This document shows, in pieces, positions 2,431 through 14,448 of a stretch of 64,000 nucleotides of DNA (position 1 is the first letter of the stretch; the number at the start of each line of letters is the position of its first letter). The stretch covers positions 10,227 to 74,226 of the forward strand of contig WARW01000003.1 in assembly GCA_013387215.1 (NCBI GenBank), given 5' to 3'. The notes under the pieces are model-generated. The model was not told the origin of the DNA. It did not search any database and worked only from the letters and a program-made list of their open reading frames with translations. Made by a program: the position numbers and the translations under genes. The stretch is from Patescibacteria group bacterium (GTDB lineage Bacteria; Patescibacteriota; Microgenomatia; UBA12405).

Positions 2431-4206
2431 ATGAATATTTTAAAGTGGAACCTGGACGACATATTATCTGTTGAAAAATTTGATGAATTTTTTTGGGAAA
2501 TTCAAAATGATATTGGTTATTATCCACAACTAATTAAAAAACTAGACCCTCGAATGGAAGAGGAATTGTTTAAAGAGATAATAGATTTTGATGAAAATTT
2601 GAGCGAGAAAATTTCCAGATTGAGTTATCTGCCTCACTTAATGGAAACTACCAACCAAAAAGACCAGAAGGCTCAAATTTTAAAATCAAAAGCAGACCAA
2701 ATAATTGTTAGCTATGAGGAAGTTTCAAGAAAATTATTTCACTGGCTTAAGGGAAAAAAGGTTAACGAATTAGAGATTTTGGACAATAAAAATGCAGAAA
2801 GACTATTTGAATCGATTCCTGATTTGGAATTTCAACTTAAACATAATCGTGAAGCATCAAAATACGCTTTAAACGAATCTGAAGAAAACATAATTAGCAA
2901 TAAAAATATTAGCGGAATATTTGCAGTCAAAGATTTACGAAGACAAATATCAACTGGTTTTAGATATAAATTAAAGATTAAAAATCAAAAAACAAGAATA
3001 ATTAAAACACAAGCCGAATTAACAAATTTAGCGCACAGCTCTAAACCAGAAGAAAGAAAAGCGGCCTACTTAAGCTTGTTTAAAGAGTATGAAAAAAATT
3101 TAGATAAATTTTTTATAATTTATCAAGCAGTGGTTAAAGATTGGAATTATGAAGCAAAACTTAGAGGTTATGAAAGCGCCATCAGCATTAGAAATTTTAA
3201 TAATCATATTTCTAATGAAGTAATTGAGATGTTATTAAAAACCTGCAGTGAAAATAAATATGTTTTTCAAAAATATTTTAGATATAAAGCAAAAGAAATG
3301 GGGGTTGAGAAATTAAATCGTTTTGATATTTATGCTCCATTTAAGGCTAGGACTTATAAACACATAGAATTTAATAAAGCAAAAGAGTTGGTTTTAGAAA
3401 CATTTAAAGAATTTTCACCCAGTTTTTACAATCAGGCCAAAAAAATATTTGACGATAAACATATTGATTCCCACCCGAATCCAGAAAAAAGAAGCGGTGC
3501 ATTTTGTGCAACAATCAGTCCTAAAATAACTCCTTACATAATGATGAATTTTACAGGTGAAAAAAATGATTTATATACATTAGCTCATGAACTAGGACAC
3601 GGTATTCACAGTTTATTGGCAAATAATCATTATTATTCAAGTCAGCAGGCTACCCTACCTCTGGCTGAAACCGCTTCCACTTTATCGGAATTAATTTTGT
3701 TTGAAAAAACTTATAAAAATGAACACGATTCTAAAGTTAAAAAAACAATGCTGATTGACCAGATAGCAAGTTCTTATGCAAGCATATTGAGACAAAATTA
3801 TTTTGTGCTATTTGAAATTGAAGCCCATAAATTGATTAATTCAGGGTGCAATTCCAGCCAATTGTCGGAATTGTGGCTAAATACATTAAAGGAGCAGTTT
3901 GGGGATAGTGTAGAGGTGGATAGGGTTTTTAAAAATGAATGGGCTTATATCCCCCATATCTTTGATACACCATTTTATTGCTACAGCTATAATTTTGGAG
4001 AACTATTAAGTTATGCTTTGTATAGTAGATATAAAAAGGAAGGTTTAAGTTTTGTTTCTAAAATTGAAACGATATTGAAAAGCGGAGGTTCAGAGGATCC
4101 CGAAAAAATATTAATGAATGCTGGAATAAATATTAAGGATAAAAACTTTTGGCAGAGTAGTTTTGAGATAATAAATGAATGGCAATCTACATTAGAGAAA
4201 TTGTAA
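2431..4206 (+). CDS. pepF: Oligoendopeptidase F, M3B family
   Basis: 591 aa with HELGHGIHS (HEXXH) zinc motif and M3B-like length and organisation. Confidence 0.85.
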   Translation: MNILKWNLDDILSVEKFDEFFWEIQNDIGYYPQLIKKLDPRMEEELFKEIIDFDENLSEKISRLSYLPHLMETTNQKDQKAQILKSKADQIIVSYEEVSRKLFHWLKGKKVNELEILDNKNAERLFESIPDLEFQLKHNREASKYALNESEENIISNKNISGIFAVKDLRRQISTGFRYKLKIKNQKTRIIKTQAELTNLAHSSKPEERKAAYLSLFKEYEKNLDKFFIIYQAVVKDWNYEAKLRGYESAISIRNFNNHISNEVIEMLLKTCSENKYVFQKYFRYKAKEMGVEKLNRFDIYAPFKARTYKHIEFNKAKELVLETFKEFSPSFYNQAKKIFDDKHIDSHPNPEKRSGAFCATISPKITPYIMMNFTGEKNDLYTLAHELGHGIHSLLANNHYYSSQQATLPLAETASTLSELILFEKTYKNEHDSKVKKTMLIDQIASSYASILRQNYFVLFEIEAHKLINSGCNSSQLSELWLNTLKEQFGDSVEVDRVFKNEWAYIPHIFDTPFYCYSYNFGELLSYALYSRYKKEGLSFVSKIETILKSGGSEDPEKILMNAGINIKDKNFWQSSFEIINEWQSTLEKL

Positions 4207-4216
4207 TTAAGTGATA

Positions 4217-4234
4217 TAATTTACATGTAAATTA
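4217..4234. promoter_or_regulatory. 18-bp perfect palindrome TAATTTACATGTAAATTA immediately after a TGATATAAT -10-like box
   Basis: Seen directly. Perfect dyad symmetry. Lies upstream of the small peptide gene and the HK/RR operon; TGATATAAT sits at 4212-4220. Confidence 0.4.
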
Positions 4235-4240
4235 AGGGTA

Positions 4241-4275
4241 ATGTTTGTTTATTTCAAACATGAAGTTCATTTTTT
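4241..4275 (+). terminator. Weak hairpin (ATGTTTG-7nt-CAAACAT) followed by a T-run; possible pepF terminator
   Basis: 7-bp inverted repeat at 4241-4261, T5 at 4271-4275. The 8-nt gap between stem and T-run makes it a weak candidate. Confidence 0.25.
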
Positions 4276-4337
4276 ATTCATAATTATATTTTTTAATTAA
4301 TTGTTAATAATTAAAAAAATTAAGGTGGTGATAATAA

Positions 4338-4454
4338 ATGAAAAAATTAATGGAAGAAATATTAACAGATAAAAGTGCCCGAAACATGGCTCAAACAGAT
4401 GCTTTATCACTTGCTGTTGAAGAAGTTGGCGATCCATGGCAAAGTATTGCTTAA
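4338..4454 (+). CDS. 38-aa small peptide MKKLMEEILTDKSARNMAQTDALSLAVEEVGDPWQSIA; candidate signalling-peptide precursor (ComX-like)
   Basis: Not in the ORF track because it is under 60 aa. Strong SD AAGGTGGTGA at 4322-4331 with a 6-nt spacer to the ATG. A single Trp lies 5 residues from the C-terminus, and the gene sits directly upstream of the HK. Confidence 0.55.
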   Translation: MKKLMEEILTDKSARNMAQTDALSLAVEEVGDPWQSIA

Positions 4455-4485
4455 TAATTAAATTAAAACCTAGAAATTAAAACTA

Positions 4486-5961
4486 ATGCTAAAAACAATC
4501 ATAAACAAATTAATTTCTAGGTTTAATAATTACTTATTTAATTTTTCCCGGATAAGTGATGAAGATTTGAGGCGAAAGGCTAAGATTTTTAATATAATCA
4601 CTTTCTCTATTTTTTTATTGACTTTATATTCTCTTGCGACTTGGATATTTGGTTATTGTTTTATTGATAGATCTTCTGACAGAAATTTTAGCCACATAAT
4701 TCCAATTTTAGTACTTACACTATTGCCAATTATATTGTTAAAAGTTTCCTTATTAGGAAAACCAAGATTAGCAGCTTGGATATTAATATCATTACTATTA
4801 TTGGCTACATTAAGAACTTCTTTAATTTATGGTGTAAATGTACCAATGGCAACTGTAAGTTATGCGCTAATAATTTTTATGAGCGGAATCTTGGTTGGGC
4901 CATTAAGTGCTTTTTTATTAACAATAATAATTTTTGGTTGCTTGTTAAGCATTTTCTTTTCCCACACGTGGCATTTTATTGAGGTATATTCTGATTGGAA
5001 GAATAAATCTTCTGATATATCGGATATTCTGATATTGAATGTTATATATTTGGTCATTGCAATAGTGTCATGGTTATCGAGCCGAGAAGTTAACAAATCA
5101 CTTAAAAATGCTAATTTATCAGAACAGAAAGCTTTAATGTTGGCTGACAAATTACAAAAACAAAATGATGATCTGGAAAAAATAGTAGAAGAAAGAACAC
5201 AAGAACTTAGGGAACATCAATTAAAACAGCTGATGGAAATAAATACGTTGGCTGAATTTGGAAAAATATCAGCAGGATTATTACATGATTTGAAGAATCC
5301 ATTAACGGTAATTTCAATGAATTTAGACAGTATTAATGATTACGTTAAAGACAAAAATATTTTAAGTCAATCGGAATGGAAAAAATTAATCAACAATTCT
5401 TTATTAGCTTCCAGAACAGTGGAATCAATGGTCAGAACTTCGCAAAAGCAATTAATTAATGAAGATACTAAAGTATTATTTGATTTAAAAAAGGAAATTA
5501 AAAATACTTTAATACTTTTGAATACAAGAGCAAATAAGTTTGGGATAGAAATAAAATTTGTATGTAAAGAATCAATAAACATATTCGGTTGTCCAACAAA
5601 ACTGTCTAGAGTTTTAGCCAACCTAGTTGTAAATAGTATAGATGCTTTGAGGGATGCAAAAAGAGATTTTCCAAAAATAACTATTGAAGTTCAGAAAAAT
5701 AAAACTTCAATAGAAATTATGATTAAAGATAATGGCTGCGGTATTAAAGACGAAGACAAGAAAAATATTTTTCAAGCATTATTTAGTACAAAAAAAGAAA
5801 TGAATAATTCTGGTTTAGGCCTATTTATCAGTAAAACTATTTTGGATAGTTGTTTTAAAGGTACTATTAGTTTTAAAAGTACCTGGGGTGAAGGAAGTGA
5901 ATTTTTAATCGATATTCCGGTTTTAAAACAAAATGGAGCAAAAACTAAACAAAGTAATTGA
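4486..5961 (+). CDS. Sensor histidine kinase with an N-terminal 6-TM sensor domain lacking large extracellular loops
   Basis: About 6 TM helices in the first roughly 200 aa, coiled coil, H-box LLHDLKNPLTVI, then an HATPase_c domain with DNGCGI and GLGLFISK motifs. Confidence 0.85.
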   Translation: MLKTIINKLISRFNNYLFNFSRISDEDLRRKAKIFNIITFSIFLLTLYSLATWIFGYCFIDRSSDRNFSHIIPILVLTLLPIILLKVSLLGKPRLAAWILISLLLLATLRTSLIYGVNVPMATVSYALIIFMSGILVGPLSAFLLTIIIFGCLLSIFFSHTWHFIEVYSDWKNKSSDISDILILNVIYLVIAIVSWLSSREVNKSLKNANLSEQKALMLADKLQKQNDDLEKIVEERTQELREHQLKQLMEINTLAEFGKISAGLLHDLKNPLTVISMNLDSINDYVKDKNILSQSEWKKLINNSLLASRTVESMVRTSQKQLINEDTKVLFDLKKEIKNTLILLNTRANKFGIEIKFVCKESINIFGCPTKLSRVLANLVVNSIDALRDAKRDFPKITIEVQKNKTSIEIMIKDNGCGIKDEDKKNIFQALFSTKKEMNNSGLGLFISKTILDSCFKGTISFKSTWGEGSEFLIDIPVLKQNGAKTKQSN

Positions 5962-7807
5962 TAAAGGAATTGCCTTTTTAACTGATGAATTAGAAAAGAA
6001 TGTATATTTTGGATTTGAAAGCATATTTCCAATGATTTTGGTTTTTGATTGTCTTAATGAAATTGACAATAAAGGCAGCTACTTGATTAAAGCGAAAATT
6101 AAAAAAGTTTTATTGAAAGAGAAAAATGAATTATGGTCTTTTAATTATTGGAAAAGAAAATCGATAAAAAACAAAATAGAACCATATCCTGAGGATCTTG
6201 ATGATACATGTTTAGCACTTAGTGCTTTATATAGATTTGATAAAAAAGTTTTCAAGGGCAATGATCTTGCAAAAATAATTAATCTTTTAATATTGGCGGA
6301 AGAAAAGATAGGCGGCCCATATCGTACTTGGATATTGGCTAAAGAAAAGTCGGAAAAATGGAGTGATATCGATATTGCAGTTAATAGCAACATTGGATAT
6401 TTTTTAAAATTACAAAAAATTAAGTTAAAGAACTTAACTGAATTAATTGAAAATGGAATCATTAAAGACAAAATATATTCCCCTTTTTATAAAGGTGAGC
6501 TGCCCGTAATTTATTTTATTTCCCGTTTTTATAATGGGAAATTAAAAAATATTTTGAAAGAAAAACTTATCAATAAGGCAAATACTAGCGATTCGGCCTT
6601 AGATTTAGCTTTGATAATAAGCAGTTTAATCAGACTCGGTTATAAAAATATAAAAGAAGACTGGGTTAAGAAAATATGTACAAAACAATCCAAATCAGGA
6701 AATTGGATAGGTGAAGATTTTTATTTTTATGTAGACAAATTAAAACAAACTAATTTTATTGGTACTGAAAGCATTAGTACGGCTTTTATTTTGGAAGCTT
6801 TAACTTTATATATAAATCAAAAACTCAAATTTAAAGATCCATTGTTTTTAGAGATTAATGAGTTTAAAAAAGAAACAGTTTTCAGGCTAGAAAAAGTTTT
6901 TGAAAAGCATCCCGATAAATTAAAAAAGGAAATATTAACATTTATCAAAAACTTAGCTTCGAGCAGTGAATCAGAAATGATAATTGCGACGCCATTAATT
7001 GTTTTAAATTCTATCGATACGGAATTAAAGATCAAAATAACAAAAGATTTTATTGTCAAATTAGGACAAATTAATTTATTGGGATGGTGTGCATATACGA
7101 TTTACGACGATATTATGGACAGTGATTCTTCAGGAAAAATGATTCCAATGGCAAATATAATTTGCAGGGAGATGGAATCAATACTAGGCAGTCTTCCAAT
7201 AAACAAGGAAACAGGTTTTTTTAATTTTTCCAAATTTTTATTGCAAAAAATGGAAATAAGTAATTGGTTTGAACAGAATTATTTATGTCTTAACTCTAGC
7301 AATAATACAATCGATGAGTTTGATTATAAAAAGTTAGCCGATAAGTCTTTAGGACATGCATTGAGCTCAGTAGCAATTTTATGTTATTTGAAACAATCAG
7401 TAAGGTCTTTAGAGGTCCGTTATTTAATGAATTATTTTAGATATTTTATTGTTGCTAAACAGATGAATGATGACGTTCATGATTGGTTAGAAGATTTAGA
7501 AAAAGGCCAAATAAACAGTGCGAGTTATGGATTAATAAAATTTTTAGAAAAAAACAATAAAAGTATTTATAAAGAAATCATGAATAAAGAAAATTTAAAA
7601 TTAATTTTTTGGCAAAATATTGTTCCTGATTATTGTAATAAAATAATATATTTTTCAAATAAAGCGAAAAGAGCATTAAACCAATCCAGTTTAATTATCA
7701 ACAAACTATATTTATTGAATTTAAATAATAAGAATGTAGAATTATGTAGAATTGCATTAAAAGAAAGAAAAAATACATTAGACTTTATAAAAAATTACTA
7801 CAAATGA
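5933..7807 (+). CDS. Two-domain fusion: N-terminal alpha/alpha-toroid (terpene cyclase/prenyltransferase-like, PEDLDDTCLAL) plus a C-terminal isoprenyl-diphosphate-synthase/terpene-synthase-like domain (DDIMD and DDVHD); ComQ-like candidate
   Basis: 624 aa. DxDDT motif at about aa 87-92. The first DDxxD sits in YTIYDDIMDSD (aa 391-395, FARM-like), the second in QMNDDVHDWLED (aa 513-517, SARM-like), about 120 aa apart. Overlaps the HK by 29 nt and the RR by 4 nt, indicating translational coupling. Confidence 0.55.
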   Translation: MEQKLNKVIDKGIAFLTDELEKNVYFGFESIFPMILVFDCLNEIDNKGSYLIKAKIKKVLLKEKNELWSFNYWKRKSIKNKIEPYPEDLDDTCLALSALYRFDKKVFKGNDLAKIINLLILAEEKIGGPYRTWILAKEKSEKWSDIDIAVNSNIGYFLKLQKIKLKNLTELIENGIIKDKIYSPFYKGELPVIYFISRFYNGKLKNILKEKLINKANTSDSALDLALIISSLIRLGYKNIKEDWVKKICTKQSKSGNWIGEDFYFYVDKLKQTNFIGTESISTAFILEALTLYINQKLKFKDPLFLEINEFKKETVFRLEKVFEKHPDKLKKEILTFIKNLASSSESEMIIATPLIVLNSIDTELKIKITKDFIVKLGQINLLGWCAYTIYDDIMDSDSSGKMIPMANIICREMESILGSLPINKETGFFNFSKFLLQKMEISNWFEQNYLCLNSSNNTIDEFDYKKLADKSLGHALSSVAILCYLKQSVRSLEVRYLMNYFRYFIVAKQMNDDVHDWLEDLEKGQINSASYGLIKFLEKNNKSIYKEIMNKENLKLIFWQNIVPDYCNKIIYFSNKAKRALNQSSLIINKLYLLNLNNKNVELCRIALKERKNTLDFIKNYYK

Positions 7808-8484
7808 ATATACTATATATAGAAGACGATAAACAATTAGCCAAAACTATCCAACAAAAACTGATTTCTCATTACAATGTTGATATCTCTCCAACTGGTA
7901 AAAAAGGCATCATTTTAGCCGAGAATAAAGAATATGATCTTTTTATAATTGACTACTATCTGCCAGATCAAAACGGAATTCAAGTTTGTAAAAAAATTAG
8001 AGAGGTTGATACCAAAACACCAATTTTGGTTTTTACTACTAACGATACTAAAAAAGATGTGGTTGAAGCGCTTGATGCAGGAGCTGATGATTATTTGACA
8101 AAACCATTTTCTTATCAAGAGTTAGAAGCCAGAATCAGAGCACTTGTAAGAAGAAACAGTCGTAAGCAGCCAACCAAGCAGATAAATGTTGGCAAATTGA
8201 CTATTAAATTGGATGATCAATATATTGTTTTAAACAAACAATATATTAAATTGCCGAGGCAAGAATATATGCTTTTAAAATATTTGACCACAAATAAAGG
8301 AAAATTGGTTTCACGAGAGGAACTCTATGAACATGTATGGGGTAGAGATGATTACTATAATTCAAACACAATAGACGTCCACATAAGGCGTTTGAGAAAA
8401 AGATTAAAAGAACTTGTTGGAGAAAACTGCATTAAGTCGGTTTATGGAAGTGGATATAAAATATATAATTTTCAAGAAGAATAA
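7804..8484 (+). CDS. Response regulator, OmpR/PhoB family
   Basis: Receiver domain with D residues and LTKPF, plus a C-terminal winged-helix Trans_reg_C (LPRQEYMLLKYL...IDVHIRRLRKRL). Confidence 0.85.
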   Translation: MNILYIEDDKQLAKTIQQKLISHYNVDISPTGKKGIILAENKEYDLFIIDYYLPDQNGIQVCKKIREVDTKTPILVFTTNDTKKDVVEALDAGADDYLTKPFSYQELEARIRALVRRNSRKQPTKQINVGKLTIKLDDQYIVLNKQYIKLPRQEYMLLKYLTTNKGKLVSREELYEHVWGRDDYYNSNTIDVHIRRLRKRLKELVGENCIKSVYGSGYKIYNFQEE

Positions 8485-8614: not shown

Positions 8615-9262
8615 ATGAACGAAAAAATCAAAAAACAACTCACGGCATTTTTTAACAAATATAAACTTATAAAGTATAAAAAGGGTCAAATTCTTTTTAA
8701 ACCAGGTGAGAGAATTAATGGTATTTTATTTGATAAAAGTGGTTACGTAAGAGTCTACACTATCTCAAAAGAAGGAAAGGAAATTACACTACCAATGTTA
8801 AAACCTTTATTTTTCTGTTCTTTAGTCGATGCTTTATTGGGCAAAGAAAACAAATATTACATTGAAGCTATTAGCCCAGTGGAATTATGGCTGGCTCCAG
8901 AAAACGAATTTATGGATTTTATCAAACAAGATCCAGATCTTTACGATAAAATGACCAAATCTATGTTGAATGATTTTATGGATTTAACTAATAATGTTCA
9001 ACAGCTTATTTTTGGGGATGCATACACAAAGATTGCCAGTTTAATATATTCGATGTCAGAAAAATTTGGAGAAATGAAAGGCAAAGAAACCGTCATCGGA
9101 TTTAATACTCCCCACAGAATGTTGGCTAGCATGACTGGGTTAACCAGAGAAACAGTGACTCTACAAATCTTAAAATTACAAAAGGAAGGCTTTTTGTATA
9201 ATAAAGGCCGAAGAATTGTAATTAAAGATATGGAAAAACTCAAAGAAATTGCTCAGGTCTAA
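8615..9262 (+). CDS. Crp/Fnr-family transcriptional regulator
   Basis: cNMP-binding-like N-terminal domain and a C-terminal HTH (SMTGLTRETVTLQILKLQKEGFL). Confidence 0.75.
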   Translation: MNEKIKKQLTAFFNKYKLIKYKKGQILFKPGERINGILFDKSGYVRVYTISKEGKEITLPMLKPLFFCSLVDALLGKENKYYIEAISPVELWLAPENEFMDFIKQDPDLYDKMTKSMLNDFMDLTNNVQQLIFGDAYTKIASLIYSMSEKFGEMKGKETVIGFNTPHRMLASMTGLTRETVTLQILKLQKEGFLYNKGRRIVIKDMEKLKEIAQV

Positions 9263-9265
9263 TTT

Positions 9266-9700
9266 TTGGTCTATAATTTGTTTATGACTAGTTCAAGTAG
9301 GATTTACAGATCTAAAAATGAGTACATAATTGCCGGTGTTTGCGGAGGTTTGGCGGAACATTTTAATATTGATCCAACCATAGTTAGGATAATTTTTATC
9401 CTCTTAACTTTAGGTGGCGGGAGCGGAATATTAATATATATAATTCTGTGGTTGGTTTTACCTATGGAAGGAAAAAATGAGCCGGATGATTTGAAAGATA
9501 GAGTTAAAGAAATTTCAGAAGAGTTTAAGAATAATTATTCAAATAGAGAAAAGAGAGGTAACTTTTTGGGAATTATAATATTGTTGATTGGCGTAGTTGC
9601 TTTGTTGGACCAGATTCAACCAGCAATAATCAGATGGGATATTTTTTGGCCAGCCGTTTTGATTATGACAGGGTTGTTTTTGATATTTAGAAAAAGATAA
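9266..9700 (+). CDS. PspC-domain membrane protein
   Basis: YRSKNEYIIAGVCGGLAEHFNIDPTIVRIIF PspC signature followed by TM segments. Confidence 0.7.
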   Translation: MVYNLFMTSSSRIYRSKNEYIIAGVCGGLAEHFNIDPTIVRIIFILLTLGGGSGILIYIILWLVLPMEGKNEPDDLKDRVKEISEEFKNNYSNREKRGNFLGIIILLIGVVALLDQIQPAIIRWDIFWPAVLIMTGLFLIFRKR

Positions 9701-9892: not shown

Positions 9893-10279
9893 ATGATTAA
9901 AAGGATCCTAATAATAATTTCAATAATTGTACTTTATCTAATTCCTAAAAACATTAAATATGATAAAAAAACAAACCCTTCATTGGTAAATAATTCGCAA
10001 GTGATTGTTAGCCAAACCCCCTTAATAAGCAGCAGAGGTATCAAAATAAAAAATATAAATGCCCCTGAGATAATTGGTGTTAACGGAAAAGAAAATTTCT
10101 ATCCAGACCACAGCCTACCTATTAATATAAACAATATCCTATTGATTGGCTCTGCCATATTTATTAGTTCAGGAATTGGTCTTTTAGAAATAGACAATAT
10201 GGTGGCGAGAGTGAGAAATCTTGTTAATAAAATTAACTTTAACGGCTCTTTAGTTAAATTCATTAATAGAATATTATGA
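9893..10279 (+). CDS. Small membrane-anchored protein, first gene of the glucan-synthase operon
   Basis: N-terminal TM segment. Start moved to the internal Met (MIKRIL). Stop overlaps the next gene's ATG (ATGA overlap). Confidence 0.35.
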   Translation: MIKRILIIISIIVLYLIPKNIKYDKKTNPSLVNNSQVIVSQTPLISSRGIKIKNINAPEIIGVNGKENFYPDHSLPININNILLIGSAIFISSGIGLLEIDNMVARVRNLVNKINFNGSLVKFINRIL

Positions 10280-11463
10280 ACAAAAGAATTTTGGGCTATT
10301 TATTTATAGTATTAGGGATTGCAGTTTTTGGATATGTTTTGTATGTTAATAGCCAATACATTGATTTAACTCGGCCGTTTTCGTCATATACTTTGTTGAT
10401 TTCTTCATGGGAAAAATATAAACAAGAATTTATAAATAAAGACGGCAGAGTAATTGATTATTCCCAAAGCGGAATTACAACATCTGAAGGCCAAAGTTAC
10501 GCCATGCTTAGATCAGTATATATTGATGACAAAGGCGCTTTTGACCAAGTTTGGAATTGGAGCAAAATAAATCTTAAAAGACCAACTGATAATCTTTTTG
10601 GGTGGAAATGGGGTTTAACCAGTGATAATAAATATGGGTTTTTAGAAAATGGAGGAAGTAATTCAGCTGCCGATGCAGATACCGATATCGCTTTGGCACT
10701 AATATTTGCGGGAAAGCGCTGGAAAAATGATGAATATATAAACCAATCAAAAACAATCTTAAAGGATATTTGGGATAAAGAAACTGGAGTGGCTGCTGGA
10801 AAAAGATATCTGATTGCCGGGAACTGGGCAACTGATGGAAATATGCTAATTATTAATCCTTCATATTTTGAGCCATACGCCTGGAGAATTTTTGCCACAG
10901 TCGACAAAGATCATGACTGGAATAGTTTAATCGGCCCGGCTTATGCTTTATTGACAGATTCAGGAAAAAGTAATCTGGATAAAAATTCATCGGTGGGACT
11001 GCCTCCAGATTGGGTAGAAATTGATAAAACAACAGGTGTTTTAAAGGCACCAAGTTTTGCCAATTTAACCACAAATTATAGTTTTGATGCTATGAGAATT
11101 CCCTGGAAAATTGGATTGGATTATCAATGGAACAAAAATCAGGAGGCTTACAATTACCTGGCTCAATCATTTAAAAAAATATCGGAAATATATGCGACTG
11201 ATGGTAAGCTGCCAACATCACTGTCTCACGATGGACAAATAGTTCAAGATCAAGAAAATCCAACCATGTACGCAACTGCAATTGGTTATTTTATGTTGGC
11301 TGACCCCATAGCAGCAAAAAAAATATATCAAGAGAAAATCCTCAACTTATATTCCAACGACCAAAACATGTTCAACAGCAATCTTCCCTACTATGAACAA
11401 AACTGGTTATGGTTTGGTTCGGCAATTTACAACCACGAAATAAATAGTTTAAGCAATCAATGA
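10276..11463 (+). CDS. bcsZ: Glycoside hydrolase family 8 endoglucanase (BcsZ-like), membrane-anchored
   Basis: SEGQSYAML and AADADTDIALALIFAGKRW match the GH8 signature A-[ST]-D-[AG]-D-x2-[IM]-A-x-[SA]-[LIVM]...W. N-terminal signal anchor. Confidence 0.7.
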   Translation: MNKRILGYLFIVLGIAVFGYVLYVNSQYIDLTRPFSSYTLLISSWEKYKQEFINKDGRVIDYSQSGITTSEGQSYAMLRSVYIDDKGAFDQVWNWSKINLKRPTDNLFGWKWGLTSDNKYGFLENGGSNSAADADTDIALALIFAGKRWKNDEYINQSKTILKDIWDKETGVAAGKRYLIAGNWATDGNMLIINPSYFEPYAWRIFATVDKDHDWNSLIGPAYALLTDSGKSNLDKNSSVGLPPDWVEIDKTTGVLKAPSFANLTTNYSFDAMRIPWKIGLDYQWNKNQEAYNYLAQSFKKISEIYATDGKLPTSLSHDGQIVQDQENPTMYATAIGYFMLADPIAAKKIYQEKILNLYSNDQNMFNSNLPYYEQNWLWFGSAIYNHEINSLSNQ

Positions 11464-13010
11464 AATTTAATATAAACAAAGGCCTCCTAGAAAGAGGAAA
11501 AATTGATAAGTCGTTAATAGGGCTTAATTTGGCCATGACTGCTTTTTATTTTTCTTGGTGGCTGACACCGTCGCATATAGATAATAAGTTTTTATATTTT
11601 CTATTGTTTATAGGGGAAATTTATCATATTTTTATGGCCTTAACTTTTTGGCACACAATTGCTCCGGGGCAATTAAAAATTAAAAAAGTGAATAGATCTA
11701 AAAAATTCTTGCCTACAGTAGACATATTTATAACAGTAGCAGGAGAACCAGTAGAAATAGTAAAACAGACAATAAACAAAGTTTTGAACATGAACTATCC
11801 AAAATCTTTTATATATATATTGAATGATAGTTTAGTGGCTAAAAAAGAAAATTGGAGAGAGTATGAATATTTAGCTGAAGAAATGGGGGTTTTTTGCATA
11901 ACCAGAACCGTGTCTGGAGGTGCAAAAGCCGGCAATATTAATCATGCCTTAAAAATAACCACAGGCAAATTAATTGCCATCTTTGATGCCGATATGCAAC
12001 CAAGACCGAATTTTTTATCCAGATTAATACCCTATTTTAGAAACAAAAAGGTTGGTTTTGTGCAAACTCCTCAATATTATAAAAACTGGCAAAATAATTT
12101 GGTTAGCAGCGGCGCATGGGCCCAACAAGAGTTTTTTTTCGGCCCAATAATGAAAGGGAAAGAAAAAAGTAATTCGGCTTTTATTTGCGGAACAAATTTT
12201 TTGATAAGACGAACTGCTTTATTGGAAGCTGGCGGAATGCAGGAGAATAATATTGCAGAGGATTTTTTAACATCACTGTTTGTTCATAATAATGGCTGGC
12301 TGTCTTATTATGTAAACGAAGTGTTGAGTGAGGGTCTGGCTCCAGAAGATATGTTGTCATACTTTAAACAACAACTAAGATGGGCCAGAGGGTCATTGGA
12401 AATCGTATTTACTAGAAATAATCCTCTTTTCAAAAAAAGATTGAGTTGGCACCAAAGGATTGAATATTTATCATCATCTTTGTATTACTTTAATGGAATT
12501 ATAGTTCTAATCGATATTGTAATGCCATTGTTGTTTTTATTTTTTGGAATACGACCAGTAGCAGCTAGCTCCACCTCGTTTGCACTTTTCTTTGTACCTT
12601 TTATATTTTTAAATTTATATTCACTAAGAATGGCTTCTGCCGACAGAATATCCTTTCAAGCATTATCATTCACTCAGTCGTCTTGGACACTCCAAATTTT
12701 GGCTCTAAAATCAATTCTTTTAAAACAAAAAATGAAGTTTGAAGTTACTTCAAAAAGGGCTCTGACTGGAAACTACATAAACTTAGCTTATCCTCATATT
12801 ACTTATATTGTTTTAGCATTTATGGGATCGATCACAGCTGTGCTTAGAGAAGGAATTAACCCATCAGTAATAACAAACATTGCCTGGGTATTAGTAAATA
12901 CAATATTATTTATTCCATTTATTATGGCAGCTTATAAGGCTGAAGGTGTTCCACGACCCAAACTGGAAATCGATCTGGCAACTGAAAATGAAAGAAAACA
13001 TGTCAAATAA
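11460..13010 (+). CDS. GT2 processive beta-glycosyltransferase, cellulose-synthase (BcsA)-like
   Basis: Motifs FDADMQP (DxD), QTPQYY and QQLRWARG (QxxRW) with flanking TM helices. ATGA overlap with the GH8 gene. Confidence 0.75.
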   Translation: MKFNINKGLLERGKIDKSLIGLNLAMTAFYFSWWLTPSHIDNKFLYFLLFIGEIYHIFMALTFWHTIAPGQLKIKKVNRSKKFLPTVDIFITVAGEPVEIVKQTINKVLNMNYPKSFIYILNDSLVAKKENWREYEYLAEEMGVFCITRTVSGGAKAGNINHALKITTGKLIAIFDADMQPRPNFLSRLIPYFRNKKVGFVQTPQYYKNWQNNLVSSGAWAQQEFFFGPIMKGKEKSNSAFICGTNFLIRRTALLEAGGMQENNIAEDFLTSLFVHNNGWLSYYVNEVLSEGLAPEDMLSYFKQQLRWARGSLEIVFTRNNPLFKKRLSWHQRIEYLSSSLYYFNGIIVLIDIVMPLLFLFFGIRPVAASSTSFALFFVPFIFLNLYSLRMASADRISFQALSFTQSSWTLQILALKSILLKQKMKFEVTSKRALTGNYINLAYPHITYIVLAFMGSITAVLREGINPSVITNIAWVLVNTILFIPFIMAAYKAEGVPRPKLEIDLATENERKHVK

Positions 13011-14448
13011 ATTACTAGTGCTGATAGTTCTGGTGACATCCCTAATCAGCATTTATTTTCTTTTTACACAATCGATTCGTTTAGATGAGGCTCAATCGAT
13101 ATGGATGTTTACTAAATCGATTCCCGGGATGCTCAAACTTACTTCTCAAGATGTAAATTTACCGCTTTACGGAATAATTATGCATTTCTGGCTGCAGATA
13201 TTAGGAATAAATATTGTTAGAGCCAGATTATTATCTTTGATATTCTTTTTAATAACATTACCAGTTCTGTACCAACTAATAAAAGAATCGAGCGATAGTG
13301 ATCATGCAATTTTAACAGTAGCATTTTTTGCTTTTTCTCCTTTTATTTTGTGGTACACCAGTGAAGCCCGAACTTATACGTTGTTTATATTAATTGCTTG
13401 TTTACAACAATTATATTTTTTACGATTAATCAGAAGTGGTGGAAATAACGGAAAATTTGGTTATTTTATTGGTACTGCACTTGGATTTTATACACATTAT
13501 TTTTTTATTTTCCTTTTAATTGCCCAAATAGTTTTTGTACTGAGTTTAAGAATAGTTAAAGGTAAAAATAAAAATAGGTTAATTAAACGTCACCTAATTT
13601 TAGATTTTGGAGGTTTATTGGTTTTTATTCCTTGGATTTATTATATTTTTAGGACCGGAGGAGCGGTTAACACACAGCCATTAATTCCTATTCCAAACAG
13701 CTATAGCGTGGTGCAGACTTTTGTTAATTTTGTGGTGGGATTTCAATCTCAATCAATTCAAGCAGTCTTAATTTCTCTTTGGCCACTTTCGACTGTAATT
13801 TTATTTTTAATGTTTACACATAGGAAACAAAAATTGGTTAAAAATGTCGAATACTTTTTTTTAGTCACTTTTTTACCGATTATTTTAGTGTTTTTAATAT
13901 CTTTTATAAAACCCATTTTTTTATCTAGATATTTAATTTTAGTGACACCAACATTATTTTTTATAATTGCATGGATAATTTTGAGTAATTCTAAAAAAAT
14001 ATCTTTTTATTTATCGGTATTAATTTTGCTTTTGATGTTTAGTTTTTTAATGTTTCAGAACATTTCGGCAGCAACTCCAAGTAAAGAAAACTATAGTGAA
14101 GTTAGCCAATATTTGAACCAATATACAACACCAGAAGATATTGTGGCAATTACTGCTCCATTTACTATTTATCCAATTGAATACCAATACCAAGGTGAAG
14201 CTAAATTAGTAACAATTCCTAATTGGGATAAATATGTTGAAGGACCAATCCCCCAATATAATTCTGATAATCTAGTTAAACAAATTAATGACTATAAAAC
14301 TCAATATAATCGTTTGTTTGTGGTTTTTTCGTATGATCAGGGATATGAAAATGATATAAAAAATTATCTGGACACACATTATGCCATCATGGGAATGGGA
14401 AAGTTTTCGGACAGTATTGAAATGAGAATCTACAAATTGAGATACTAG
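13000..14448 (+). CDS. GT-C (PMT_2 / ArnT-like) membrane glycosyltransferase-like protein
   Basis: Roughly 11 TM helices and a first periplasmic loop RLDEAQSIW..., typical of family 39/83 GT-C enzymes. Start chosen at the Met (MSNKLL) just inside the upstream stop. Confidence 0.5.
   Translation: MSNKLLVLIVLVTSLISIYFLFTQSIRLDEAQSIWMFTKSIPGMLKLTSQDVNLPLYGIIMHFWLQILGINIVRARLLSLIFFLITLPVLYQLIKESSDSDHAILTVAFFAFSPFILWYTSEARTYTLFILIACLQQLYFLRLIRSGGNNGKFGYFIGTALGFYTHYFFIFLLIAQIVFVLSLRIVKGKNKNRLIKRHLILDFGGLLVFIPWIYYIFRTGGAVNTQPLIPIPNSYSVVQTFVNFVVGFQSQSIQAVLISLWPLSTVILFLMFTHRKQKLVKNVEYFFLVTFLPIILVFLISFIKPIFLSRYLILVTPTLFFIIAWIILSNSKKISFYLSVLILLLMFSFLMFQNISAATPSKENYSEVSQYLNQYTTPEDIVAITAPFTIYPIEYQYQGEAKLVTIPNWDKYVEGPIPQYNSDNLVKQINDYKTQYNRLFVVFSYDQGYENDIKNYLDTHYAIMGMGKFSDSIEMRIYKLRY

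Follow-up and report, generated by a model that had tools for sequence, protein, structure and literature searches.

The question raised by this locus is whether a reading frame of only 38 residues, placed directly ahead of a sensor histidine kinase gene, is a gene at all and, if it is, what its product does. Patescibacteria have tiny genomes with few regulatory or biosynthetic systems, and their means of sensing each other or their hosts are largely unknown. Here we analyse a 64-kb stretch of Patescibacteria DNA (the window, 32 % G+C) in which a preliminary description had singled out this short open reading frame (ORF) as a real gene, encoding either the precursor of a ComX-type signal or a small regulatory protein. 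The genes concerned are:

4338-4454, + strand: gene of the candidate precursor peptide, 38 aa, with a leader at about residues 1-16, a variable middle, Pro33-Trp34 and the tail QSIA
4486-5961, + strand: sensor histidine kinase with about six transmembrane (TM) helices and short loops (residues ~35-200), followed by HisKA and HATPase_c domains
5933-7807, + strand: fused enzyme of 624 aa, consisting of an N-terminal class II terpene cyclase (~1-300) and a C-terminal trans-IDS-like prenyltransferase (~301-624)
7804-8484, + strand: OmpR-family response regulator with Response_reg and Trans_reg_C domains, its start overlapping the end of the enzyme gene

The ORF at 4338-4454 encodes the peptide MKKLMEEILTDKSARNMAQTDALSLAVEEVGDPWQSIA, and the window holds a single copy of it. 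Short ORFs are abundant here, with 67 of at least 30 aa in 12 kb of sequence, so the reading frame alone proves nothing; it is its conservation that places it far above chance. With the 624-aa enzyme as the handle for the locus search, we scanned one genome per GTDB species and obtained 318 loci. The best 80 of these 318, almost all from Patescibacteria/CPR MAGs, were examined by running jackhmmer with the 38-aa peptide as the query against all of their stop-to-stop ORFs. A peptide homolog was found in 71 of the 80 GTDB loci, one per locus. All but one of the homologs (70/71) share the orientation of the enzyme gene and lie some 1.4-1.8 kb 5′ of it, directly before the kinase gene, the remaining one being a minus-strand match inside an N-masked stretch (L078). 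The nine loci that lack a homolog are all on contigs broken off in or beside the kinase gene, and every related locus that extends that far has a peptide homolog just 5′ of the kinase.

Conservation also extends to four closer relatives of the window (L081-L084), whose enzymes are 57-40 % identical to the one studied here. The preliminary description had named loss of the ORF in relatives retaining the kinase and the regulator as evidence against it; in these relatives the ORF is intact in four of four, at 36-38 aa, and it had been left uncalled by gene callers in three of them. Compared with L081 (57 % identical), ten codons differ only synonymously, five of them in the leader, and all four codons of the tail differ non-synonymously. 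Beyond these loci, a profile built from six members was searched against 1.84 billion representative proteins at a cut-off of E ≤ 1e-3 and retrieved 271 cluster representatives, nearly all of them 34-40 aa long. The exact peptide is present in a protein collection, from an NCBI source and without a name, and neither Pfam nor NCBIfam has a family for it. We conclude that the 38-residue ORF is a genuine gene, as had been claimed, and one that is widely conserved in Patescibacteria (CPR).

The peptides of this family are 33-40 aa long and follow the consensus MKxLxKKxLTDKxAR...PWxx, in which the leader is conserved and the middle is variable. Positions M1, L9, R15 and W34 are invariant. The Trp is kept in 70 of 70 aligned homologs and is found in all 149 library representatives examined, and 61 of 70 sequences have a Pro just before it. 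The columns of the leader have an entropy of about 1.7 bits, compared to about 3 bits for those of the middle and tail, and hypervariability in both sequence and length marks the stretch around and after the Trp. Between one and seven residues follow the Trp, which is never C-terminal among the 74 locus peptides; one of the 149 library representatives ends in W. A conserved N-terminal leader combined with a hypervariable C-terminal part was the pattern that had been proposed beforehand as a test of a signal precursor, and this pattern is what the comparison reveals, with the invariant Trp, mostly as PW, in addition.

The window peptide is free of Cys and its lone Trp is residue 34, in agreement with what was first noted about it. 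Since 70 of the 74 locus peptides likewise lack Cys, lanthipeptides and other Cys-based RiPP classes are ruled out, and the early judgement that this is not a lanthipeptide was correct. The peptides at L010:5222-5374 and L018:5374-5487 end in PWCC and PWECC, a Cys pair after the Trp that is absent elsewhere in the family. The middle segment is hydrophobic in many lineages, for example AVALSAFIMSMASVA, and charged or amphipathic in the window and in Saccharibacteria-type members (AQTDALSLAVEEVGD and AAVEAALMQQAAA); the charged middles rule out a Sec signal peptide or a TM protein as a general reading of the family. No recognisable cleavage motif was found in the peptide.

What surrounds the peptide gene was determined by all-against-all clustering of the ORFs from 85 loci. 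Only three protein families are conserved around it, namely the enzyme (85/85 loci), the kinase (81/85) and the regulator (72/85). The commonest gene order, seen in more than 56 loci, is regulator-peptide-kinase-enzyme, with the regulator mostly directly upstream of the peptide gene, and the order in the window and its close relatives is peptide-kinase-enzyme-regulator. In the window the 624-aa gene, which has many homologs and which the preliminary description had passed over, lies between the kinase and regulator genes and overlaps both of them. The kinase has no extracytoplasmic domain. In L081 (3553-4999) it is called as two genes of 292 and 204 aa, reflecting a frameshift or an assembly error, with the peptide, enzyme and regulator intact despite the split call.

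Genes for a transporter or exporter, a leader protease or immunity are not among the conserved members of the cassette in the 85 loci. A genuine PF00348 polyprenyl synthase adjoins the cassette in 16-17 of the 85 loci (for example L001:382-1416 and L021:8935-10002), which fits the need for a prenyl diphosphate donor; no polyprenyl synthase is present within the 64-kb window. An M3 oligoendopeptidase F gene (2431-4206) is located directly 5′ of the peptide gene in the window and in L081, L082 and L084. It could conceivably process the peptide, but a role as leader protease is unsupported: its synteny is limited to the nearest relatives, and none of the 80 GTDB loci has it.

Several other neighbours are shared within the same narrow group. 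Genes for a Crp/Fnr-type regulator and a PspC/LiaF-like membrane protein (8615-9700) come immediately after the response-regulator gene, both in the window and in L081-L084, and are so placed in only four and two of the 80 distant loci, respectively. Further downstream (10276-13010), a GH8 glycoside hydrolase gene and then a cellulose-synthase-like GT2 gene are syntenic in L081-L083, and large ORFs for PMT-like membrane glycosyltransferases flank the region (165-1388 and 12946-14448). On a wider scale, many cassette loci (L003, L010, L013, L018 and others) come from MAGs labelled 'uncultured Gammaproteobacteria' or other non-CPR phyla. The 'uncultured Gammaproteobacteria' MAGs are binchicken and SRP co-assemblies, and mislabelling or mis-binning seems likely because their cassettes are typical of Patescibacteria ones.

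The chemistry available to this cassette depends on the 624-aa protein, for which we found no Pfam or NCBIfam match at E ≤ 0.1. An AlphaFold2 model of this enzyme has a mean pLDDT of 92. The N-terminal part is an alpha/alpha-barrel cyclase domain (C domain) with the DxDD(T) general acid, present as the motif PEDLDDT at residues 86-92 (family consensus PDDLDDT, within PYPDDLDDT) with the DxDD acid intact. In an alignment of 38 enzyme sequences P86 and D90 are invariant and Y85, D87, D88, L89, D91 and T92 nearly so. In sequence this domain resembles drimenol synthase, matching the class II cyclase part of that enzyme (E = 2e-14), and D90 aligns to the catalytic Asp of AsDMS, the residue that is mutated in the D333N entries. 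The precomputed annotation of four enzyme homologs (P0021, P0024, P0030 and P0042) lists PF28380.

The C-terminal prenyltransferase domain (P domain) combines the isoprenoid-synthase alpha fold with the first Asp-rich motif, as do ComQ, PalQ and the P domain of ChrPC, a motif through which such enzymes hold the prenyl diphosphate by way of Mg2+. It contains DDIMD at 392-396 and QMNDDVHD at 510-517. Conserved in the 38-sequence alignment are D392 and D396 (YDDxxD) together with Q510, D513, H516, D517 and D521 (QxNDDxHDWxxD), and Q510, D513 and D517 are invariant. No significant sequence similarity links the domain to Pfam polyprenyl_synt, NCBIfam or Ord1, and a profile-profile comparison relates it only weakly to the neighbouring IDS family (E = 1.4e-3, probability 17 %). 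In FPPS-type enzymes, IPP is bound by the GGKxxR and RRG motifs. The adjacent PF00348 synthases have GGKxxR, and RRG following the FARM, as invariant or consensus motifs, and the 624-aa family has neither of them in its consensus. With these IPP-binding basic motifs lost, the P domain is, as judged from its motifs, not a chain-elongating synthase.

All characterised trans-IDS-like peptide prenyltransferases, namely ComQ, PalQ and the ChrPC P domain, target Trp (PMC13290415), and by analogy with them the 624-aa enzyme would supply the ComQ-like partner of the peptide. In Trp prenyltransferases of this kind the SARM region serves Trp binding and has a conserved Gln immediately upstream, a residue highlighted in the same review (PMC13290415). 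An hhalign comparison places Gln510, D513 and D517 on the canonical FQIxDD motif that genuine polyprenyl synthases carry, with Gln510 on its FQ; the feature is therefore an ancestral one of IDS enzymes and cannot serve to diagnose Trp prenyltransferases.

The expression of the peptide and of its neighbours may in turn be governed by elements on either side of the peptide gene, of which the following can be located:

4193-4220, + strand: sigma-70-like promoter with an extended -10, made up of TAGAGA (4193-4198), a 16 nt spacer and TGATATAAT (4212-4220)
4217-4234, no strand assigned: 18-bp perfect palindrome TAATTTACATGTAAATTA, overlapping the -10
4265-4280, + strand: direct repeat GTTCAT-N5-ATTCA (period 11 bp), candidate box for an OmpR-type response regulator
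4322-4331, + strand: Shine-Dalgarno (SD) site AAGGTGGTGA, 6 nt before the ATG
4466-4524, + strand: RNA hairpin, its perfect stem 15 bp long and its loop, in which the kinase start codon lies (4486), 29 nt

The strong SD site that the preliminary description had placed 6 nt from the ATG is indeed there. GGTGGTGA is kept in the relatives, and strong, AAAGGAGGTGA-like SD sites are found in most of the 74 family members. A second claim, that a -10-like site and an 18-bp perfect palindrome mark the region upstream, holds in so far as both are present and fails as to their significance. The promoter matches at 10 of 12 positions, has a TG ahead of the -10 and a weak -35, and its extended -10 is also found in L081 (TGTTATAAT); promoter-like sites are not enriched in the region, with 3 found compared to 5.2 expected. 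The palindrome is the sole one of its length in the window and is no more than partly conserved in L081. Dinucleotide-preserving shuffles yield 1.05 such palindromes per 64 kb, and at least one in 63 of 100 shuffles, which puts it at chance level and rules it out as a significant feature; a function for it is doubtful.

The conserved regulatory elements are the GTTCAT repeat and the hairpin, while the details of the promoter and palindrome are weak. GTTCATN5RTTCA has one match only in the window compared to 0.12 expected, and its TTCA cores are invariant in the five-way alignment of the window with L081-L084. Among the distant loci the repeat was found only in L077, where three tandem GTTCAT copies lie between the regulator and peptide genes, and it is therefore clade-specific. 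Its geometry is as expected for an OmpR/PhoB-type box, to which the regulator of the cassette would bind.

The hairpin, with stem arms at 4466-4480 and 4510-4524, starts 12 nt past the peptide stop codon and has a folding energy of -20.8 kcal/mol (z = -5.4). It is also found in L081, L083 and L084 with compensatory changes (CCUAG/CUAGG versus CCCAG/CUGGG), and an Rfam gathering scan of the whole window returned no match. The kinase start codon held in the loop has no obvious SD. The hairpin is probably an attenuator or a translational control between the peptide and kinase genes, and as an attenuator it is suggestive of a means to keep peptide transcripts in excess.

Taken as a whole, the cassette is analogous to ComQXPA but is not a member of it. 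In both, a short ribosomal precursor with a variable C-terminal part has an internal Trp a few residues before its end, an isoprenoid-synthase-fold enzyme shares one cluster with a polytopic membrane kinase and a response regulator, and the kinase core and the regulator evolve more slowly than the kinase sensor, the peptide and the enzyme. By its architecture the window kinase, with about six TM helices, short loops and a position adjoining the peptide gene, would fit the description of ComP as a polytopic membrane sensor kinase encoded beside the pheromone gene. ComX is the quorum-sensing pheromone of Bacillus, and its partner ComQ has a FARM and, in place of a SARM, a pseudo-SARM only (PMC10853753). 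Unlike ComX, the precursor described here is 33-40 aa long, has an unrelated leader and shows no sequence homology to it. ComQ is a single-domain protein (IPR033965 / polyprenyl_synt-like), whereas the window enzyme has two domains, keeps DDxxD at the SARM position and has no family match. The regulator is of the OmpR/PhoB type, whereas ComA is of the NarL/LuxR type. Finally, the gene order differs from that of ComQXPA, being regulator-peptide-kinase-enzyme or peptide-kinase-enzyme-regulator, and the carriers are Patescibacteria, not Bacillota.

Other systems resemble parts of the cassette, among them the fused prenyltransferase-cyclase RiPP maturases ChrPC and NctPC (Hubrich et al. 2024, Chem 10:3224). 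In the outline given by a review (PMC13290415), ComQ and ChrPC modify an internal Trp, and ChrPC has a trans-IDS-like P domain that uses C10-C20 donors and a fused C domain that then cyclises the prenyl group. The window enzyme shares with ChrPC/NctPC, as that outline presents them, the union of a peptide-Trp prenyltransferase with a monodomain class II (MstE-like) cyclase in one polypeptide, the peptide-Trp activity being the predicted one here. It differs from these systems, which we know through the same source (PMC13290415), in that the precursor is very short with a new leader and that every cassette comes with a kinase and a regulator. In the window enzyme the cyclase domain is N-terminal, ChrPC being compared here through its description in the review. 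In PalP-PalX-PalQ of Paenibacillus alvei, too, a Trp-containing precursor shares a single cluster with a histidine kinase and a trans-IDS-like Trp prenyltransferase, and PalQ was once mis-annotated as a terpene synthase. However, the leader of PalX is a long one of the NHLP type and its Trp is strictly C-terminal, and PalQ is a single-domain enzyme without a cyclase, whereas the Trp is internal here.

In contrast to the activity proposed for the window enzyme, the drimenyl diphosphate and drimenol synthases AsDMS (9mhs/9m7d) and SsDMS (7xq4) and the monodomain cyclase MstE (6sbb) work on free farnesyl diphosphate or on small-molecule prenyl substrates, which they cyclise. AsDMS is also fused to a HAD phosphatase, whereas the window cyclase is fused to a prenyltransferase. 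Ord1 (9v4g), an all-alpha tryptophan farnesyltransferase, differs in acting on free tryptophan and has no detectable sequence similarity to the window enzyme. In the literature covered, on ComX/ComQ, RiPP prenyltransferases and pheromones in Patescibacteria/CPR/Saccharibacteria and excluding Hubrich et al. 2024, the cassette is not described.

Because an internal invariant Trp is found together with trans-IDS-like and cyclase domains and with a kinase and a regulator, we propose a pathway of leader-guided prenylation of Trp34. The reading that we favour, and that we hold to be rather probable, is that the peptide is a RiPP precursor which is prenylated and cyclised on Trp and sensed by the six-TM kinase, with autoinduction. 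In this pathway the conserved leader MKxLxKKxLTDKxAR would dock the peptide on the cytoplasmic 624-aa enzyme, whose trans-IDS-like domain would move a polyprenyl group, probably C15-C20, from a prenyl diphosphate onto the internal Trp34. The class II cyclase domain would then protonate and cyclise the attached prenyl chain. The lipidated peptide, either whole or after removal of its leader, would reach the membrane or the outside of the cell, where the neighbouring histidine kinase would detect it through its polytopic membrane domain. This kinase would phosphorylate the OmpR-type regulator, which may act at the GTTCAT repeat upstream of the peptide gene and thereby close an autoinduction loop, while the conserved hairpin after the peptide gene would lower the expression of kinase and enzyme relative to that of the peptide. 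Of the two alternatives left by the preliminary description, the ComX-type one is thus preferred, in view of the invariant Trp, the conserved leader and the hypervariable tail; modification, cleavage, release and sensing of the peptide are its predicted steps.

Rates of change along the cassette can be set beside this proposal. Between close relatives, identity is 35-41 % for the P domain, 29-43 % for the kinase sensor and 33-60 % for the peptide, and these three have changed more rapidly than the C domain, the kinase core, the regulator or the Crp gene next to them. In a set of 57 cassettes, the distances between peptides show their strongest correlation with those of the kinase sensor and of the P domain; when the regulator is controlled for, the partial correlations are 0.38 for the sensor and 0.36 for the P domain compared to 0.23 for the C domain. 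These differences in divergence and in the mirror-tree analysis give weak support to the proposed system, as they are modest and confounded by phylogeny and by the drift of membrane domains.

The same genes can be read in other ways. We regard it as unlikely, yet worth weighing with some care, that the product is a bioactive lipopeptide and not a pheromone, either an antimicrobial or an effector directed at the host cell of these episymbionts, with the two-component system merely regulating or sensing it. The enzymology would be identical to that of our favoured reading, and in many members a hydrophobic stretch comes after a cationic N-terminus, as in membrane-active peptides. NisRK is a precedent for a two-component system that senses its own product, nisin, and Hubrich et al. 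2024 are said to have described a cyclised geranylgeranyl RiPP of a cyanobacterium with modest anti-cyanobacterial activity, which counts in the same direction. However, the cassette has no conserved immunity gene, transporter or protease, signalling looks integral to it given how regularly the kinase and the regulator accompany the enzyme, and a polytopic membrane sensor suits a lipidated ligand.

The hydrophobic middles found in many lineages would fit a membrane-embedded, non-secreted peptide too, and one can therefore picture a peptide, lipidated or not, that stays in the membrane as an accessory subunit and modulates the adjacent kinase in cis, in the manner of MgrB and SafA, the small modulators of PhoQ. 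Here the Lys-rich N-terminus followed by 15-18 hydrophobic residues in many lineages, the position of the gene immediately upstream of the kinase everywhere, the absence of a conserved exporter or protease, and the fact that the best correlation of peptide distances is with the kinase sensor domain would all fall into place. But the charged or amphipathic middles of the window and Saccharibacteria-type peptides are unable to span a membrane, and the invariant Trp, the hypervariable tail and the obligatory linkage to a prenyltransferase-cyclase are left unexplained, which makes this reading improbable. Conservation of the peptide at the amino-acid level across the phylum (L9, R15, W34 and LTDK), accompanied by synonymous changes, tells against a mere regulatory uORF, whose translation would open the hairpin and couple kinase expression to it while the enzyme makes a free terpenoid unrelated to the peptide. 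A uORF does not need a constant length of 33-40 aa either, and the C-terminal domain of the enzyme lacks the IPP-binding motifs of chain-elongating synthases. The hairpin just past the stop codon, with the poorly marked kinase start codon in its loop, and the homology of the N-terminal domain to drimenyl/drimenol synthases that act on free FPP are what one would expect of such an arrangement; even so, we give it very little credence.

Should the Trp-modified autoinducer that we favour be what this cassette makes, its reach may be considerable. As a tentative extension that we consider possible and somewhat less probable than its opposite, the cassette would represent a phylum-wide native signalling system of Patescibacteria/CPR, acting from cell to cell or from symbiont to host, and a new class of RiPP, in which a precursor of about 37 aa is prenylated on its invariant Trp, has that prenyl group cyclised into a terpenoid ring system, and serves as a pherotype-diversifying autoinducer for which the six-TM kinase and the OmpR-type regulator would be the dedicated readers. 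The terpenoid-RiPP chemistry of the ComX, PalX and ChrPC/NctPC products would thereby be extended to a new precursor family and a new phylum. A compact four-gene cassette, present in at least 318 species-level genomes, now has a concrete candidate signal and a concrete candidate receptor, and a function is proposed for a large family of 'hypothetical' 600-aa proteins and for the peptides of about 37 aa that gene callers often miss. If true, these ultra-small and largely uncultured bacteria would have their first defined peptide pheromone system.
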